A stretch of DNA of 64,000 nt from NCBI GenBank assembly GCA_051294905.1, contig CM119371.1:18788001-18852000 (forward strand), read 5' to 3'. Of this stretch, positions 23,006 through 64,000 are shown piece after piece (the stretch's first letter is position 1; the number at the start of each line of letters is the position of its first letter). Source of the stretch: Botryllus schlosseri. Lineage: Eukaryota. The notes below the pieces were generated by a model, which was not told the DNA's origin, ran no database searches, and worked only from the letters and a program-made list of their open reading frames with translations. A program made the position numbers and the translations under genes.

Positions 23006-23149
23006 CCCAGCAAACACTCGATGTCCAGTTGACTTCCGGTGGAATTGCCGGCAGGACGTCCGGTAACTTACGGCCGTCACCTCCCTGGAGTGAGTTTGTC
23101 GACAACTAGGGACGTCCTGTCTGCTCTCTGAGTACGTCCGCAATGACGT

Positions 23150-23350
23150 GTTGTGGACATGAAGCGACTCATCATGGACGCGGCTGACCTATCCTGGACG
23201 TCACGTGGTTCCCTATGGACGCGTCTGACGTACTGTGGACGTGACGCCACCCCCTGTGGACGTCATGCCACTCCCTATGAACGCGCCTGACGTACTGTGG
23301 ACTTGACGCCACTCCCTATGGACACCAGTCCACGTACTGCGGACGTCTTA
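23150..23350 (+). repeat. Subterminal ~21-bp degenerate tandem repeat with a TGGACGT core
   Basis: cctatggacgcgtctgacgt / actgtggacgtgacgccac / cctgtggacgtcatgccact / actgtggacttgacgccact etc.; related GGACATCC/GACGTCC motifs occur near the right end (30688-30910). Confidence 0.8.
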
Positions 23351-24163
23351 TTCGCCCCTGTTCAAGTCCTCAGGACTCCCTGTGGAAAACTTAATGATCT
23401 CTATGATTAGCTCCTCCACTTTGATACCTGCTCTGCTCCCACTACATGGAATCCAACATCATATAAGCTCACAAACTGTTTATATTGGGTTACTGGAAAA
23501 CGACAATTGCAAATTTCAAGTAAAACATTAATTAAAGAACTCTTATTATTTAATACAACAAAGTTAAGGATTAAGTGAAAATTCGATCACAAAATTATAA
23601 ATATATGAAATAAATGTGTCACATGAATTTTGGAAATATCAGCTAGTTTTAACTAACTAACATGACAAACATTCCAATTGAGGTGCATACGAGAAATTTG
23701 AAAGAAACGTGTCAAAGGAATTTGACAAAGGACAACCGCTAAGACAATTAAAAACAGACATAAGCAATCATAAGTAGGAACTACCATTGCAAGACGTAAA
23801 ACGATGCATCGGCTGTACCGCATCATGTTAAGAGTCGCGAGCGCGTATTCGTCTTTGACAATAAACTTTGGTTGCAACAACAGGTTTCTTCTCAGTCCTT
23901 GTTTTGCCTGAAGCACATAAAAACAATGTCAGCAAATTGTATGTAGATACACTCTTCATAGCACATGAAATATGTATCAGAACTTCACTATATATTTCCA
24001 CTTGCATTAATTGTAATATGTCTTGTAAATCGCTACTTCTATTTGTACTTGAGTGAAAATTTACGACGATACTATAACTACTGCGTCTATTTGAGTGTGG
24101 AGAGCTTCTGAACTAGCGATACAGAGTATGCGTCAGCCAATCAAATCAACTTGTGGAAACACC

Positions 24164-24656
24164 CAGGGCTGTAATTGCAATGAGTCGAGTTGCGATTTCT
24201 GGTGACTCGAGTCTTTTTCTCAAAATTCGGAAATGACTCGACTCGAGTCAATCTATGTAATGACTCGGACAAGTCATATGAATCGAGACTCGGACGGCTA
24301 AGACCGATAACACACTAGTGTAACCACACTATTGGTATTTCGTCTAATAGTAGCAGTACTTGAAAATGCGACCAGAAACTGTTAAAGGTGAGAAAAACCA
24401 GTAGCCTATATTATATATTATAAATGCGAACCGTTGATATCACCGAACAGAGTTATAAAAACTGGATTAAACAAGAATTTAGCTGGAAACTGAGCAGTCA
24501 ACGCAATGGTTGAACTTGAGTCATAACACCATGACTCGGGCTCGACCCTATACTCGCTGACTTGGACTTGACTCGGTGGTGAATTGGAAATGACTCGACT
24601 TGACTCGAGTCAAAACTATATAAGTGAGATTGACTTGTGACTTGGCTACAACCCTG
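24164..24656 (+). mobile_element. hAT-like MITE, copy 1 (GACTCGAGTC-rich)
   Basis: TIR CAGGGCTGTA...TACAACCCTG; 8-bp TSD GAAACACC/GAAACATC (1 mismatch). Confidence 0.85.
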
Positions 24657-24873
24657 GAAACATCTAAAGTACATACTTGAGTACTTTTCAGAAATTATAC
24701 TTTCACATCAATTAGTTTGGACAAGGCTTGTAAATCACTGCTTGTACCAGAGTGGAAATACATTGCGTTACTACTACGTCTACTCCATTGATGACACAAC
24801 AAATACTTCTACTTGAGTGCTGAAAACAACTACGTTTTTGACTATCTCTGTTCAGAAGCATGCACCTACGACT

Positions 24874-25370
24874 CAGGGTTGTAACCAAGTCACAAGTCAA
24901 TCTCAATTTTATAGTTTTGACCCGAGTCAATTTGAGTCATTTTCAATTCACCACCGAGTCCAAGTCATTGTGTTGACGCTCAGTTTCCAGTTAAAGCCTT
25001 GTTAACCCACTTGTTATAACTGTGTTTGGTGATATCGAATGGTTCTCAATTCTCATTCAAAATATAGCCTACTAATTTTCCTCACTTTTAGCAGTTTCTG
25101 GTCGCATTTTCGAATACAAGTACCAATAGATGAATTCCTAATAGTGTGGTCACTTTACTATACTTTGAAATTGCAATGAAATGTTGGTCTCGAGTCATAT
25201 GACTTGGTTCGAGTCATGCGCAATGACTCGAGTCCGAGTCGAGTCAATATACAGATTGACTCGAGTAGAGTCAAATCATTTCCGAATTTTGCGAAAATGA
25301 CTCGAGTCAAGTCAAGTCATCAGAAAATCGGGACACGAGTCGAGTCATGACTCGATTCATTACAACCCTG
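24874..25370 (-). mobile_element. hAT-like MITE, copy 2, inverted relative to copy 1
   Basis: TIR CAGGGTTGTAA...TTACAACCCTG; perfect 8-bp TSD CTACGACT; its start is the reverse complement of copy 1's end. Confidence 0.9.
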
Positions 25371-25604
25371 CTACGACTACATACAATAAGCCTCGACATT
25401 TCGACTGTGTCCACTTTTTGAAACTACTCACCCCAGTAGCCTACTTGTTAATGTTCAATTGTTCATGGTCGAAAATGTTTGATCGTAAATATACATGTAA
25501 AACGAACAGAACAAGTTATTTCTCAGGTTGGAAAACTTGGATCCATTATTTGACGCATAAAATTTGTCTATACGTTTAGATTGAGATTTCACTTTGACAG
25601 TAGA

Positions 25605-26242
25605 AACTCTCTGCGGGCCGTATGTTGCCCGTCCCTGCGCTAGATGCTGGACGTGATATATATTCATTAAATATATGTTTCTTCATTTTGGTGTCATAAA
25701 TGTTGCGATCACACCATAAGTATCGTCGGAAGCGTTGTGCGTTAATATTCCATTAGCCTCCATCTATCTTTGTGGAAATGATTTTCGGCACTCCTCGTTT
25801 ATGTCATAACGAAGACGCGGATTTACAAGACACGGCCACCGGGCCACGTACTTCAAGAAATACAGCAACAAAATTAGCTTTGGAATAATAAAAATCTACC
25901 AACTTCCACATAAATAGTATGATGTTATTTTCAAGAAAAATTATTATTTCGCTGTTTATCATAAGCCTACAGTTCATATTTGCACAAGATGGTTGAAGGT
26001 TGCACCATGATAGATCTAAAATTGAACTAAAACTTGAGGGGGTCCGCCAGAGCCCGTGACGGTCAAAAGGGGTCCGCGAAGCCAAAAAGGTTGAGAACCA
26101 CTGCATTAGGGGTTAGTATAGGTGACAAGATAGCGTGGTTGTTCAACTGTGTGGCCTATTTTATCTCGATATTGAATTCATGCGGCCAGCGGCTTCGGAA
26201 TTTGAAAGTGGCGCGCGACCCGTTTTGAGTTGACGACCCCTG
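25605..26242. mobile_element. Cluster of orphan hAT (Charlie-like) terminal fragments
   Basis: Ends GCGGGCCGTATGTTGCCCGTCCCTG (25637), AAAAGGTTGAGAACCACTG (26103) and GAGTTGACGACCCCTG (26242) resemble hAT CAGG/CAGTG TIRs; partner ends not found. Confidence 0.5.
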
Positions 26243-26566
26243 GCATAAGCGGTGTCTTACAAAAGGCCAGGAGTGTGCCGTGCTATAAGTCGACGGTTAC
26301 GGAATCAAAAATAGGAAATATCGGCGTGGTGTAAATGATCATTGTAGTCGACAAAAACCGTGATTACCACAAATGACATTAGGATTGTGTACATCGTAAG
26401 TGCCGATAATGCATGTCTTCTCGCTTCGACGAACTACGCGTAAGCTCCACTGTCGCCTTGTGAACCACTAATTATACTGGAGTAGATGTTAACAGCGTTG
26501 CTACTACTTCTACTCAAGTGCAAACAATGATTACTTTGATCACCCTACCAACTATTGAGTATGCAG

Positions 26567-26828
26567 CGGTCTGTGGACATACGGGCATGCGACACATGAG
26601 CATGCGAGTTAAATTACGGGTTAGGGTTGAATTTAAGCTTGGGTTCGGGTAGGGCTTGGGGTCGGGATATATAGCGATTAATTTCAGTGTTATGTTTCGG
26701 GTTAGGGTTAGTTTTGGGGTTATGAAGTCACATACTGAAGTGACGCATGCTAAACTGTTCCATGCTCAAATTGCTCATGCTCAACAGTCGTTTTCCATTG
26801 TGTCGCATGCTCATATGTCGGGCAATCG
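26567..26828. mobile_element. MITE with long imperfect TIRs and internal GGGTTA-like repeats
   Basis: GACATACGGGCATGCGACACA vs TGTGTCGCATGCTCATATGTC; flanking direct repeat (G)TATGCA; CATGCTCA subterminal repeats. Confidence 0.7.
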
Positions 26829-27089
26829 TATGCAACACATCGACCAAATCTACTTTTTAAAAGTAATTAATAGAGCATATTTCAGAACTTCATTTTCGAC
26901 TTCCATTTCAAATAGATTTGACACACCTTGTAGCTTGTTACATCTACGTGTGTATAAATTCATGACATTACTTCAACTTCAGTACAAAAGATGATTACTT
27001 TGACCACCTCTGGTTTCTATATAGTCTGTTCAACGTTTTTTAGCTTCGATTGCTTTCTGAGTTTTTCCCGAGCATGGCGCAGCACCGAT

Positions 27090-28608
27090 TTTGTAGAGTA
27101 AAAGCAACGCTTGTTCTAGGTCACAGTAGTTCTTCCAAACGATCTCGGCCCCAGTCTAGAAGGCATTCTTCGTACAGCCTGCTTGACGTTGTTGCCATCA
27201 ATTGAAGACATTGTCGATCTAGAAAATTTAAATGATTAGAATAGGTTTAGTGAAGGCATTTGTCAAGAACTGAAGCCAGGTATCCACAACATCCTGTTGA
27301 AAAAACAAAAACAATGGTGTACAAGTACTAGCTTGGCACATGAGTACTCGAATCTAAATCGAGTATTAATTCGATTACCAGTAAACTCAGCCCATTGAAC
27401 CCAGCCTACGGTAAACTCGGCCTAAACCTAAGCCTCTCCAACCCTAATCTTGGGATGCACCTAATTCACGATGTGCGATCTGATCCTTGACGTTCTGCAC
27501 TCTTCGTCAACATTATACAGCTCCGTACGTTCAATATAACATTTTATACATCCGACATACGATACCGCCCTCAGTGGGAATAACATTCATGCGACATATC
27601 CGCCACCACCAATTCGCCATTGCCTTCAATTATTAATACGATTCACGACATTTATAATAATTTGTATTGACAAAGTCACCATGGGCCCAGTTCACCGAAG
27701 GCCGAGTTCAATAGGCCGAATTCGTCATGGGCCGAGTTCACTGGTCACCACTAATTCTATTGATTCGAGCCAACTAGATGACTTTTTCAAGTAGGCCTTC
27801 TGAAATTATACGCTCTTTGCCACCAAGAGTACAGTTATCAATAAAATTACATCTTTGATACCATTTTCCAATGTGGAAGTAGCATACAAAATACGTAGTA
27901 CAAAGCTATTCACTTTAGTGGAAATGACATATCTGTGAAGTCATGATTAACCCACAGCATAGTCACAAAGTGCAATGAAATATGTATCGGTCGAAAATAT
28001 ACCAAATTATCTGTAATTTAGTGTGATGTAAAACTAGCATTGCATCATTGTATGTTCTTAGTAGAAACATAAAAGATACGTTTTCAACTTTCCATAATAC
28101 TCATACTGTTATGACTGTTATCAGTATAACATCATAATGAGTGATTATCGAATACTTGACACTTAACACCAGATTCAGAATCAATCACTCTTCACTCAGG
28201 TGCTCGATTTTGCCAAGCCCTACTAATCAGAACAGAAGTGATGCAGCCAACCTGAGATATTTATGGAAATCATGTATACCAGATTAGCGTCACTGTGAAT
28301 TATGGCACACTTGGATTCAACGAAACATCAGGTCGTAGAGTTACAATATCAAAATATCATGCAGCAATTCTGAGCACCACTGGCGAAATCCTGATCGGGA
28401 ACCACCGTCACAGAGTCTATTTGCGCATTATTTATGACACTTTTTTCAGGCTAATAAATCGCTGATTAATGAACATGAACAATCATAAATCATCACTCCA
28501 ACTTACATGATTCATCTTCTTAATCCATGGACAATGCACGACTGGGATGCGTTGCTCCGAAGTTGTAAAGTACTATATAACATTGCCTGTTCCATATTTA
28601 GACTCCTG
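27090..28608 (-). pseudogene. Probable decayed multi-exon accessory gene of the transposon (DUF4806-like)
   Basis: Manual translation of AG/GT-flanked segments gives VI*YFTTSEQRIPVVHCPWI, Y*PEKK and MSSIDGNNVKQAVRRMPSRLG/EIVWKNY; stops and frameshifts present; family recognised from memory only. Confidence 0.4.
27373..27749. mobile_element. MITE with 8-bp TSD and AACTCGGCC subterminal repeats (possibly MULE-derived)
   Basis: GATTACCAGTAAACTCAGCCCAT vs ATGGGCCGAGTTCACTGGTCACC; TSD ATTAATTC/ACTAATTC. Confidence 0.75.
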
Positions 28609-29164
28609 CTAAAAATGAAGCGATGTTGTATACGCAGACCCATATATGCCCCTGCCTCATCCGCATTAAGAGTCCATTGATAATAAGGGTCAATAGTGTG
28701 CTTTCTTATTCATGACAACATGACTATCAGCAATCAGTCTTCCCTAGGGCCCATCTACTTTGTGAATGTCGCTGTAATGTAGGCAATGTTATTGCCGTGC
28801 AATATATTTTGTGAATGTCGGCATAATGTCTCCGAGCAATAGCCTATACTTATTGGAAGGTAATGGGCGAAATATCAAGATCAATGTCAACTCAAGGTCC
28901 GAGAAGAAGTGAAAATTCAAATGGAATAAGTATCTACTTTCACCAATTTTAAACTTTCATAATACATGACAAGGAACGCGCAAGATATCCAATGAGCTAT
29001 AAATGCGACTATAATTTTTGCGACTACTATTTCTTACCAGGGATTTCAAGATATCGTATAGATAAGCTATATGTAAATTATAAGTTATCGTTATATTGCA
29101 AGTTATAAGTAAGCATTTTAAGTATGTTGCACGGCGACATTGCCGACATTGCGACAACCCGTCT

Positions 29165-29332
29165 GCCCCATGAACATGTTAAAATCCATGTAGTATATAA
29201 TTGGTTTAGCATTAGGGTATCATTAAATTAGGCCGAGGTTAAAGTTGGGTTAACTATAATGATTGTTCCTAGAATACCCTAACATTAAACTAATAATAAA
29301 GCCATACATTTTGACATGTTCACCGAAAACCT
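29165..29332. mobile_element. Small degenerate fold-back/MITE
   Basis: TGAACATGTTAAAAT vs ATTTTGACATGTTCA, plus inner TTAGGGTAT/ATACCCTAA inverted pair; no clear TSD. Confidence 0.45.
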
Positions 29333-30944
29333 CGACTAGTTTCAATGGTTATAATGTTGTTGTGGACACAACACAAAATTACAACGAATACGATAATAAA
29401 TATGCCAGTCAATAGGATGCAAATATTCATTACCATAGGTGCAACAATAGTTTTCAGCCACAAATTCAGCAATCTCACATTCAGTAAAGGAACATCCTAT
29501 AATACACTTTCAAATTATGTAGCTATATAAACCAAGGCTATAATACATTCATCGATGCTGCATCTGGTTTGCTGCATGGATCTTGCAGTCTTTGGAAATT
29601 CTTTTCAAAGTTTTAATAGTATATACCGTACACATCAAACAGAAGTTGGATATTACAACAACATGAAACCCACTGTGCTGCAAATCGAACTTCAATGATT
29701 GCACATAATTAAATATTATCATGATCATGCTCATCGCTATATAGTATTTCAAGTACTGCATAGGTTTACGATTAGCGGCGGGTCGATTAGTTTCGTTCGT
29801 ACATCATAAACCGCGGCGCAGACGTGCCACTAGAATCATAGTAAATTCATGACGGTTATCGCAGTTAATGATGACCGAGGCTGTTGCTGTTCAATAAATA
29901 TAGCACTCAAATACCAAGCTTCCCCGCTCTCTGCCTTTCTAGTACTCATGACAGCGACAATATCAATAATAATCAATAGCACGCACAATCCATCCACGCC
30001 GTTAAATATCCTATTCTAAACTAAACCATTCCTGTGATGAACCCGTCACTCCGCCATTACTACAAAACCTGTTCTTTCAAATTCAAACTGAATCACGCGC
30101 GCGCATGCTCGCCAGACAGAAGAACGCAGTCTTTATTGGTTTTATGGTTGAATGAATTTCAAGCAACAGGCGTGCTCGGCTCGACACTCGAGACTCGACA
30201 GGTATCGGAATGCCTCATATCACTGAGCTATATGCATTATCGCTGGCCTCTTGCGCAGTACGGCCTCAATTATCGATAATAGCCGGGCAGACTGAGTAGT
30301 TCCGTGATTGGAATAGTCATCACCATACCATTATAACGGATGTCAAGTTTTCATTTCGGAAGATTTCACATGCATTGGGTATACGGTATATTTGAAATAA
30401 CATATATTTTGCCTTGATGTGGACATTTCGATCCAGTAATGTCACAATAAAATAGCTGTATGTCTCTATATCGTACATTATATCTCTAACAATGTACAAC
30501 CGCGATCATCGACAGCCGGGCTTCTGAAGTTACGCGCGATAGAAAATCATCGCCATATCATCAATCAACATTCTCGTATTCACTCCGATAGATTACAAAT
30601 GGTGAAATGTATCATGACATTCATGAGTGTATTCAGAAAACTATTTTGCATTGATTGCACAATGCACACTTGAATTCATAGAAAGTAGGGACATCCTGAC
30701 GAACTCCTGTGTAGGTGGCATCCAGGCATCACACCATTATGACATCCACTGGAATGGTCAATGGTGACTGGCACAGGAGCATTCTAAAATTCACTTCCTC
30801 TGGTAGTCACCTGGAGTTACATAAATTGACGTCCAATGTTGGGCATACTGAGCAAGTCCTCCGTAACTGATGGTGGGAGGTGGGACGAGTGGGAACAATT
30901 GTGGACATACCAGTAACTCCACGGGATATCGGGTGTTTGCTGGG

Positions 30945-63375: not shown

Positions 63376-63453
63376 GCCTACGACCATACCACGTTGAATA
63401 TACCCGATCTCGTCCGATCTCGGAAGTCAAGCAATGTTTGGCCCGGTTAGTAC
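63376..63453 (+). pseudogene. 5S gene interrupted at +78 by a retrotransposon
   Basis: 5S sequence stops after CCCGGTTAGTAC. Confidence 0.92.
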
Positions 63454-63999
63454 GACGGCATTAATTCGTACGATCAAGACGAATATCTATCATCGTACCA
63501 ACACGACTGCATGCACGGGAAAGACAATGAACAAACATCGGTAATACAATCTAGCGAAATATTACAAATACTAAAAGCAATGAACAGGGAAAGGTCACCG
63601 GGTTTCGACGGCCTGACAGTGGAATTCTACCTTGCAATGTGGCAAAACATTGGCTCGAGATTAACAGAAATCATAAACAACGCGCTAATATACGGAAACA
63701 TACCGCATAGCTGGAAACGTGCTAAAATTATTTTGATTCACAAAGGAAAGGACAAAAAGGATTTAGCGAACTGGCGACCCATTTCGCTATTAAACACGGA
63801 CTACAAAATAATGGCGAAAATTCTCAACAACAGACTGGTTGAGGAAATTTCGAGCAACATCAACATGACACAGAAAGCGGGAATTCCCGGAAGACAAATG
63901 GACGTGATACACAACAATGTGAGTGCAATTGTTAATTATCATCAAGAAAAACCTTTGGAAGGTTATATAATGACAATAGACGCAAGGAAAGCCTTTGAT
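63454..63999 (+). CDS. Partial ORF2 reverse transcriptase (N-terminal RT motifs), open frame of 182 codons, absent from the ORF track
   Basis: Manual translation: ...RSPGFDGLTVEFYLAMWQNIG...AKIILIHKGKDKKDLANWRPISLLNTDYKIMAKILNNRL...QKAGIPGRQM...IMTIDARKAFD. Confidence 0.93.
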
Positions 64000-64000
64000 A
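63454..64000 (+). mobile_element. 5'-truncated non-LTR retrotransposon, L1/Tx1-type (continues beyond the window)
   Basis: Abrupt junction inside the 5S gene; A-rich sense strand; RT coding frame. Confidence 0.92.

Follow-up and report, generated by a model that had tools for sequence, protein, structure and literature searches.

Is a 5S rRNA gene that breaks off within a tandem array the mark of a retrotransposon insertion, and does the retrotransposon in question target 5S genes? One long interspersed nuclear element (LINE) family of the Tx1 clade, Mutsu of zebrafish (MutsuDr1-3 and further subfamilies; about 5.5 kb, with two open reading frames [ORFs]), is specific for 5S genes, in which its target lies about 20 nt from the 5' terminus (PMC5340908). 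The stretch analyzed here, referred to as the window, comprises 64,000 nucleotides of the genome of Botryllus schlosseri (C1:18788001-18852000) and consists of a tandem 5S rDNA array in which 136 5S genes, all on the + strand, were identified with Rfam. The last of these genes is interrupted by a LINE copy that runs past the end of the window. From the insertion itself and from a search of 495 Mb of genome in 219 contigs, we consider it likely that this LINE family prefers 5S genes without being strictly specific for them, and that near-cognate sites are also used.

A LINE inserted in a 5S rRNA gene

The last 5S match of the window (63376-63501) is the weakest of the 136, at 50.9 bits. With an intact 5S gene of the window as the query, BLAST aligned only 5S positions 1 to 78 to this locus (63376-63453), with 2 mismatches (97.4% identity). 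The sequence that follows was read together with the 6 kb directly past the end of the window (L031; other L numbers denote pieces of the genome that carry copies of the family). Within the window, the features of the locus are the following.

63376..63453, + strand: 5S rRNA gene to the left of the interruption, positions 1 to 78, differing by 2 substitutions from the intact copies nearby (Rfam, BLAST)
63444..63453, + strand: target-site duplication of 10 bp, left copy, CGGTTAGTAC, 5S positions 69 to 78 (sequence reading)
63454..64000, + strand: first 547 bp of the 5'-truncated LINE copy (junction reading, alignment to L002)
63451..63999, + strand: open ORF2 frame, from upstream of the reverse transcriptase (RT) domain into its first motifs (ORF list, RVT_1)

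The window's copy is 2,605 bp long in all, and its last bases, ...AATAAACATCACTAAAA, reach L031:2058, a point 2,058 bp beyond the end of the window. The element is followed by CGGTTAGTACTTGCATGGG..., corresponding to 5S 69-119, and then by further intact 5S repeats. The structure of the locus is, in order, 5S(1-78), the 2,605-bp element and 5S(69-119), with the right copy of the 10-bp duplication CGGTTAGTAC located at L031:2059-2068, outside the window. The first base of CGGTTAGTAC, a C, may equally be assigned to the element as its last base, and the 5' join displays an AC microhomology with 5S 77-78. Because the 5S gene resumes at +69 with a 10-bp duplication, the locus is a genuine retrotransposon insertion and not an array edge.

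The stop-free frame that starts at 63451 spans 183 codons up to the end of the window and 703 codons with the continuation, its stop being located 1,559-1,562 bp past the window. Its first codon, TAC, is 5S sequence. The frame contains the motifs SPGFDGLTVEFY, NWRPISLLNTDYKI and DARKAFD and matches RVT_1 of Pfam over residues 102-183 (E=4.3e-11). Counting the window itself, 21 genome places code for the 183-residue piece with at least 95% amino-acid identity; one further place does so with 87%, and there are many more distant relatives. A chance frame is excluded, since the frame runs on to 703 codons and is encoded at 21 genome places.

These results agree with most of what the first-pass annotation of the window had read from the locus. 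The 5S gene that stops at +78 (63453) and is fused to an open RT frame was recovered by BLAST and in the ORF list, and the three motifs that it had quoted are all present in the frame. The 182 stop-free codons that it had counted became 183, the first of them being the TAC contributed by 5S. It had also called the copy 5'-truncated and young. Indeed, the copy lacks about 2.68 kb of the 5.29-kb full-length copy described below, namely, the 5' untranslated region (UTR), ORF1 and the endonuclease, and its alignment with L002, which starts from L002 position 1502, shows 99.2% identity over 2,048 bp. The array edge or rearrangement that had been raised as the alternative is set aside by the 3' junction, where 5S resumes at +69 with the 10-bp duplication.

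Insertion sites in 5S genes and elsewhere

The genome scan covered the best 40 of 108-210 candidates per query. One query consisted of the last 259 bp of the element with 92 bp of 5S and spacer, and the other of element sequence only; the query without 5S sequence returned the same 40 places as the query with it. It was observed that 12 of the 40 best 3' ends adjoin 5S at the identical base, ...AAAA|CGGTTAGTA(C), all in sense orientation. These are the window's copy, L032-L041 and L060, and they are distributed over C1 (five, the window's copy counted), C9 (three), C11 (three) and C17 (one). The 12 copies sit in 5S variants with differing 3' ends and spacers, and L060 (C11) retains 5S 69-77 only. 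The 5' side is variable, with nine distinct junctions among the 5S copies, given below as 5S positions.

Window's copy: +78, truncated
L012: +78, full length, exact 10-bp duplication
L002: +67, then 5S 53-68 once more, full length
L006: +71, CGG microhomology
L008: +71-73, TT microhomology
L003/L004: +74, mutual duplicates
C17 copy, 184 bp long: +75
L011: +35, 33-bp target deletion
L014: +67 plus filler

Given that four contigs and nine different 5' junctions are involved, the use of 5S is recurrent and arises from independent events. L011, L012 and L014 are a near-identical triplet, and each of the three lies on a contig of its own and has its own 5' junction. An invariant 3' junction combined with variable 5' junctions is the pattern characteristic of a first-strand nick at a fixed place, followed by variable second-strand and 5'-joining steps. 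The first-pass annotation had placed the endonuclease target at +78, in loop E. This position is, instead, one of the variable 5' junctions, which range from +35 to +78 among the copies, and the primary nick falls at 5S 68|69 or 69|70, inside GGGCCC|GG.

The 28 best 3' ends that are not in 5S genes revealed a related pattern. After the A-run, their flanks carry C in 27 of 28 cases, then GG in all 28 and then T in 21 (background T 0.27). Empty sites were rebuilt for 11 dispersed copies by pairing 5' and 3' flanks, with duplications of 2-10 bp; two older copies, L097/L096 and L099/L098, are outside this set. The rebuilt sites have G at -5 and C at -2 in 10/11 each, C at -3 in 7/11, and G at -4 and -6 in 7/11, and their consensus, GGGCCN|GGT(T), matches the GGGCCC|GGTT of 5S. 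The terminal C is absent from the target in every informative rebuilt site. The element's end is therefore ...AAAAC, and the GG is part of the target, which puts the 5S nick at 69|70, or at 68|69 if C69 is counted as target.

A 3' junction that is identical and in sense orientation in 12/12 5S insertions, a precise 10-bp duplication after which 5S resumes, and the GG that follows the element at 28/28 dispersed sites leave hardly any room for a LINE with no sequence specificity, placed by array rearrangement or by chance and kept in a safe haven, even though chance landings in the array do occur, a random DNA transposon being present in a 5S gene of the same window. This transposon, a 7.9-kb element with terminal inverted repeats (TIRs), was used as a control. 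None of the 39 other best matches of its left end is flanked by 5S, and the comparison between 12/40 in 5S for the LINE and 1/40 for the control gives a Fisher p=0.0015.

The excess in 5S was also compared with the supply of suitable sites. The exact 21-mer around the 5S site occurs 646 times genome-wide, and GGSCCNGGT, with the 5S 9-mer included, has 13,313 matches. For 12/40 insertions in 5S versus the approximately 4.9% expected from motif sites, the binomial p is 2.7e-7, and this expectation is generous because most of the off-target sites are imperfect for the motif. About 2% of the approximately 650 perfect 5S sites are occupied, and the occupying copies are young.

Among the dispersed sites, some are used repeatedly. 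At least four copies are joined to CGGTTCGATTCCCGG at the same base.

C4:1.376 Mb, L065/L092: tRNA-Glu-like T-arm junction
C4:1.365 Mb, L107: tRNA-Glu-like T-arm junction
C8:21.73 Mb, L108: tRNA-Glu-like T-arm junction
C1:18.22 Mb, L109: tRNA-Glu-like T-arm junction

The empty site rebuilt from L092 and L065 was identified by ARAGORN as tRNA-Glu(TTC), and no tRNA was found by the same program at the other three rebuilt sites (L055, L064 and the SINE site of L057; SINE, short interspersed nuclear element). The tRNA-Glu site, GGCGGCCCG|GGTTCGA, is one base off the 5S motif. Moreover, five flanks begin with CGGTTC(G/A)A, resembling a tRNA T-arm, and L055 and L110, which have different tail types, have a further tRNA-like site in common. 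A tRNA-derived SINE (...GGTTCGATTCCCGGCCGGGTCATACCAAAGACTCGAAAATTGG...) is used four or five times at one base, ...CCGGCCG|GGTCATACC, by L048, L051, L053 and L057, with L066 in a variant, and is a second hot spot of the LINE. The same SINE was struck once further upstream; the pieces concerned include L050 and L013, on several contigs.

These sites allow a reading in which the LINE is directed to the T-arm of tRNA-Glu genes and tRNA-derived SINEs, or simply to a short motif, and the 5S insertions are a by-product, prominent only because insertions into tandem arrays do no harm and are copied with the array. The tRNA-Glu site GGCCCG|GGTTCGA differs little from GGGCCC|GGTTAGT of 5S, the three additional tRNA-Glu-type junctions (L107-L109, found by the junction query) belong to older copies at 84-87% identity to the query, and L003/L004 show that array duplication copies insertions. 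We nevertheless regard this reading as quite improbable. With nine 5' junctions on four contigs, the 5S insertions cannot stem mainly from amplification, the share of 5S is far above its share of motif sites, and the youngest copies are mostly in 5S.

The relation between 5S and dispersed copies was explored with a maximum likelihood tree of 15 copies, based on 2 kb of ORF2, from which seven copies with shorter matches were left out. The two kinds of copy are intermixed in the tree (5 label changes versus a shuffled mean of 5.3), and the possibility that they form separate lineages was rejected on this basis. Terminal branches are shorter in the 5S copies than in the dispersed ones (Mann-Whitney p=0.005). 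The tail ...CACAAAAA is found in 5S in 10/13 cases versus 2/27 for other tails (Fisher p=1.8e-5); the window's copy carries the other tail type.

Two full-length copies display 5S-derived bases at their 5' end. L002 (L071:2805-2820, C1, about 15 kb past the end of the window) has an extra 5S 53-68 before its first base, and in L081 (C6), a dispersed copy located in a SINE, the target GG and the element are separated by TTAG, which equals 5S 72-75. These bases may represent 5' transduction from source copies located in 5S genes, each case being a single observation.

Such bases would be expected from a 5S-resident source, and thus also from a strictly 5S-specific, Mutsu-like family, with masters only in 5S and with dispersed copies that are rare mistakes or old relics. 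Six of the seven youngest copies of the tree are in 5S (clades L001/L002/L006 with L005, and L011/L012/L014), the "cacaaaaa" tail is concentrated there (10/13 versus 2/27), and the element's terminal C before GG equals 5S C69 and has no counterpart in off-target sites. However, copies at C10:20.48 Mb and C2:25.58 Mb are dispersed and yet share 99% identity with the window's copy, and L005, which is inserted in a tRNA-like repeat, belongs to the youngest clade. In addition, 28/40 is too many for rare mistakes, and the recurrent tRNA-Glu and SINE sites are a systematic rather than an accidental alternative. Strict specificity is therefore unlikely. A 5S-specific family had been suggested in the first-pass annotation, with the flanks of other copies as the evidence to be sought. 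The 12 of the 40 best 3' ends that share one 5S base agree with this suggestion, and the 28 non-5S flanks do not, yet these are not random and resemble the 5S site.

A preference for 5S genes that falls short of strict specificity has to be weighed against several observations that speak against it. The scan is an incomplete census, and the nine further, older or additional 3' ends that were read (L082, L097, L099, L101, L102 and L107-L110) are, like the 28 already described, all outside 5S, which leaves 5S with a minority of the surviving copies (12/49 junctions read). The motif is loose, with exact GGCCNGGT in only 3/11 rebuilt off-target sites, and no duplication was found for six dispersed copies (L059/L094, L069/L104, L101/L100, L049/L076, L058/L078 and L051/L077). 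For L010, L007 and L039, no 5S sequence was made out on the 5' side. L003 and L004, because they share both their junction and an internal rearrangement, are one event copied with the array, that is, a segmental duplicate. The expectation of 4.9% is approximate, given that the counted GGSCCNGGT is stricter, by one fixed position, than the consensus eventually obtained. Few endonuclease residues differ between 5S-resident and dispersed full-length copies, and none of the differences is fixed. Finally, retention bias could inflate or deflate the share of 5S, arrays being safe but subject to fast turnover.

In our reading, the same active lineages insert preferentially in 5S and otherwise at near-cognate sites. 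The younger look of the 5S copies reflects either a tightened specificity or the fast loss of array insertions.

Structure, relatives and transcription of the family

The full-length copy on C1 (L071 with L002) has about 5.29 kb and begins with GAGAGAGGCGGCGAGC. It comprises a 5' UTR of about 135 nt, two frames, with 406 codons for ORF1 and 1,101 for ORF2, and a 3' UTR of about 500 nt that ends in ...CAC(T/A)AAAAC without a long poly(A). In ORF1, a CCHC knuckle was detected (zf-CCHC, E=3.4e-7), and no other Pfam family was reported, Transposase_22 included. The ORF1 type of Tx1 combines an RNA recognition motif with a CCHC knuckle, versus the coiled-coil/Transposase_22 type of L1. The domain search of ORF2, carried out with 1,081 of the 1,101 codons of L002, gave Exo_endo_phos at residues 17-223 (E=1.8e-12) and RVT_1 at residues 500-715 (E=4.4e-29). 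A weak zf-RVT match (0.0032), under the Pfam cut-off, was also obtained, and a CxxC...H....C motif is present at the C terminus.

Within the RT groups that have solved structures, to which the comparison was limited, the best relative in the PDB is human L1 ORF2p (257 bits, E=2.9e-75), while R2 proteins reach at most 73 bits (7e-20). Judged by its domain order, with an apurinic/apyrimidinic endonuclease (APE) domain followed by the RT, and by an RT nearer to L1 than to R2 among solved structures, the family is best classified as an APE-type LINE of the L1 superfamily. The window's copy is a recent 5'-truncated copy of an autonomous LINE of this superfamily, which is probably Tx1-like. In a collection of 5.8 billion proteins, the nearest protein is 53% identical (P0001) and the next 31%, among the best 120 of 318 matches listed. 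The only named fish match among these is "pol-like protein [Danio rerio]" (BAC82609.1, 25% identity), and they include no protein named Tx1. The matches in the ESM Atlas are only unnamed RVT_1/Exo_endo_phos clusters.

Two sister LINE families (L025/L026/L030 and L027/L029, on C1, C4, C11 and C13) have about 60% amino-acid identity to this family. Their ORF2 frames are open, with 1,108 and 1,099 amino acids (aa), their copies are 98-100% identical to each other, and they appear to have been recently active. In the five copies examined, which have a similar A-rich tail, the flanks are mutually unrelated and none is 5S.

A single-cell RNA run provided 329 raw reads on L031:1-2075 from about 3% of the run. 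Second mates account for 327 of them, and nearly all map to the sense strand of the element, with depth peaks at 630-980 and 1750-2075 of L031. Four reads continue past ...CGG into a flank unlike any junction examined. This shows that sense transcripts of the family are present, with some read-through; they are not assignable to the window's copy. The RNA reads seem to be cut at a poly-C tract, and 1694-1753 was skipped as a repeat in the alignment. Pieces of the element also occur in contig sets X1, X9 and X15, which has no bearing on transcription.

The 3' UTR of the window's copy contains a long C-rich segment with the poly-C tract (L031:1620-1790). Indels distinguish the 3' UTRs of subfamilies, and loose ends were observed at 1857, 1887 and 1957 in the read alignment.

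The 5S array of the window is itself heterogeneous, with repeat spacing classes of about 295, 473-475, 515 and 590 bp, among others. The 5S variants have 119-120 nt; a deleted form of 109 nt, scoring 81.8 bits, is present in 13 copies. The TIR element used as a control occupies 23006-30944 (TIRs CCCAGCAAACAC... and ...GTGTTTGCTGGG), between 5S 1-30 on the left and 5S 27-119 on the right. It has no long ORF (all below 115 aa), and at least 39 other near-identical copies of its left end exist genome-wide. This insert was considered as a second 5S-targeting element at a Mutsu-like position and was rejected, the 39 other best matches being non-5S; it is an abundant DNA transposon that landed in the array by chance.

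Proposed mechanism and comparison with known elements

A mechanism consistent with these junctions can be proposed. The APE endonuclease, rather than chromatin or Pol III factors, would read the motif, recognizing approximately GGGCCN|GGT(T) on the top strand and nicking the bottom strand there. In 5S genes, the site would be GGGCC(C)|GGTTAGTAC, with the nick falling at 68|69 or 69|70. The released ...ACC-3' would pair with the terminal bases of the element RNA, thereby priming reverse transcription. In the R1 elements of insects, downstream target bases at the RNA 3' end aid precise priming. The top strand would then be broken at a variable distance downstream, up to +78 (at most 10 bp), giving rise to 3-10-bp duplications or small deletions, and the 5' end would be joined via microhomology. 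Since several hundred 5S genes carry a perfect site, the 5S arrays would take a large share of the new copies, and the remainder would go to near-cognate sites such as the tRNA-Glu T-arm GGCCCG|GGTTCGA, the SINE GGCCG|GGTCATACC and single-copy look-alikes. Older 5S copies may have been lost by array turnover.

The family resembles Mutsu, as described for zebrafish, in its size of about 5.3-5.5 kb, its two ORFs, its APE-type endonuclease and its location inside the 5S coding region of tandem arrays, as well as in having intact copies and detectable RNA. It differs in that the host is not a fish, that the junction is at 5S 68|69 or 69|70 in 12/12 5S insertions, and that 28/40 of its best copies are outside 5S, while Mutsu is target-specific. 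A Mutsu-like family had been one of two possibilities in the first-pass annotation, but the site is not that of Mutsu, whose target is about 20 nt from the 5S 5' end (PMC5340908). The family was, accordingly, not filed as Mutsu, from which two features, the target position and confinement to 5S, separate it.

The Tx1 clade contains many target-preferring families, with a preference for a specific repeated target: Keno inserts into U2 snRNA genes, Kibi and Koshi into microsatellites, Tx1L into the Tx1D transposon and the crocodilian Tx1-Mar into Mariner (PMC4494074). The present family shares with such LINEs an ORF2 with APE and RT and a repeated target, and the specificity of those LINEs is attributed to the endonuclease. 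Its repeated targets account for 12/40 copies at one 5S base, four copies at one tRNA-Glu-like base and four or five at one SINE base. As in the crocodilian Tx1 families, the choice of target is "preferential" and not absolute. Neither 5S +69 nor the tRNA-Glu T-arm is among the Tx1-clade targets named above.

R1 of insects is an APE-type element specific for 28S rDNA that nicks both strands of the rRNA gene at fixed places (PMC1919474). It belongs to a different clade and has near-absolute specificity, in contrast with the present family, whose best solved match is L1 ORF2p. The match to human L1 (9k6g, 8sxt, 8uw3 and 8c8j) extends across the tower, RT and thumb (E=2.9e-75), and the endonuclease matches that of L1 with E of about 1e-10. 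Target-primed reverse transcription, variable 5' truncation and microhomology are likewise features that the family has in common with human L1. For L1, the nick site is TTTT|AA and the 3' end is poly(A). The present family differs from it in a nick next to GG in a G/C-rich motif, in the end ...AAAAC and in a CCHC-knuckle ORF1 without Transposase_22.

The Dada-5S DNA transposons of fish also insert into 5S, related families use tRNA genes, and shifts between targets follow primary-sequence similarity (PMC8869645). The pattern of tRNA-Glu and 5S targets suggested here is similar. This is, however, a LINE with RT and APE, with ends that are not inverted repeats and with 5'-truncated copies, in contrast with the cut-and-paste mode and TIRs of Dada.

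A literature search, which did not cover Repbase, found no 5S-gene-targeting LINE besides zebrafish Mutsu. The authors of a 2024 review state that they know of no report of a transposable element inserted within the 5S gene itself, although Mutsu appears in a table of the same review (PMC10946416). Because of that statement, clear cases of insertion in 5S genes are worth recording. LINEs that target 5S are, as such, already known; the present family uses a 5S position other than that of Mutsu and also uses tRNA-Glu.

More tentatively, the LINE may be in the course of a change of target, either a shift from one to the other of two Pol III genes with a common 9-10-bp motif or a split over both, a possibility to which we give somewhat less than even weight. 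Older copies would then have used tRNA-Glu GGCCCG|GGTTCGA, and the youngest copies, together with one tail subfamily (10/13), 5S GGGCCC|GGTTAGT. Since the 5S site is about 50 nt from that of fish Mutsu, 5S targeting would, on this proposal, have arisen independently of Mutsu. Should it be true, the constant terminal C (equal to 5S C69) and the 5S bases in L002 and L081 would imply that source copies reside in 5S, and such copies would be transcribed with flanking 5S bases, which would guide priming.

Target-specific LINEs provide naturally occurring cases in which insertion into "safe" multicopy genes is programmable. The graded series of off-target sites described here offers data on the reading of about 9 bp by an APE endonuclease, as well as on target shifts between similar sequences, and the family bears on the dynamics of 5S arrays.

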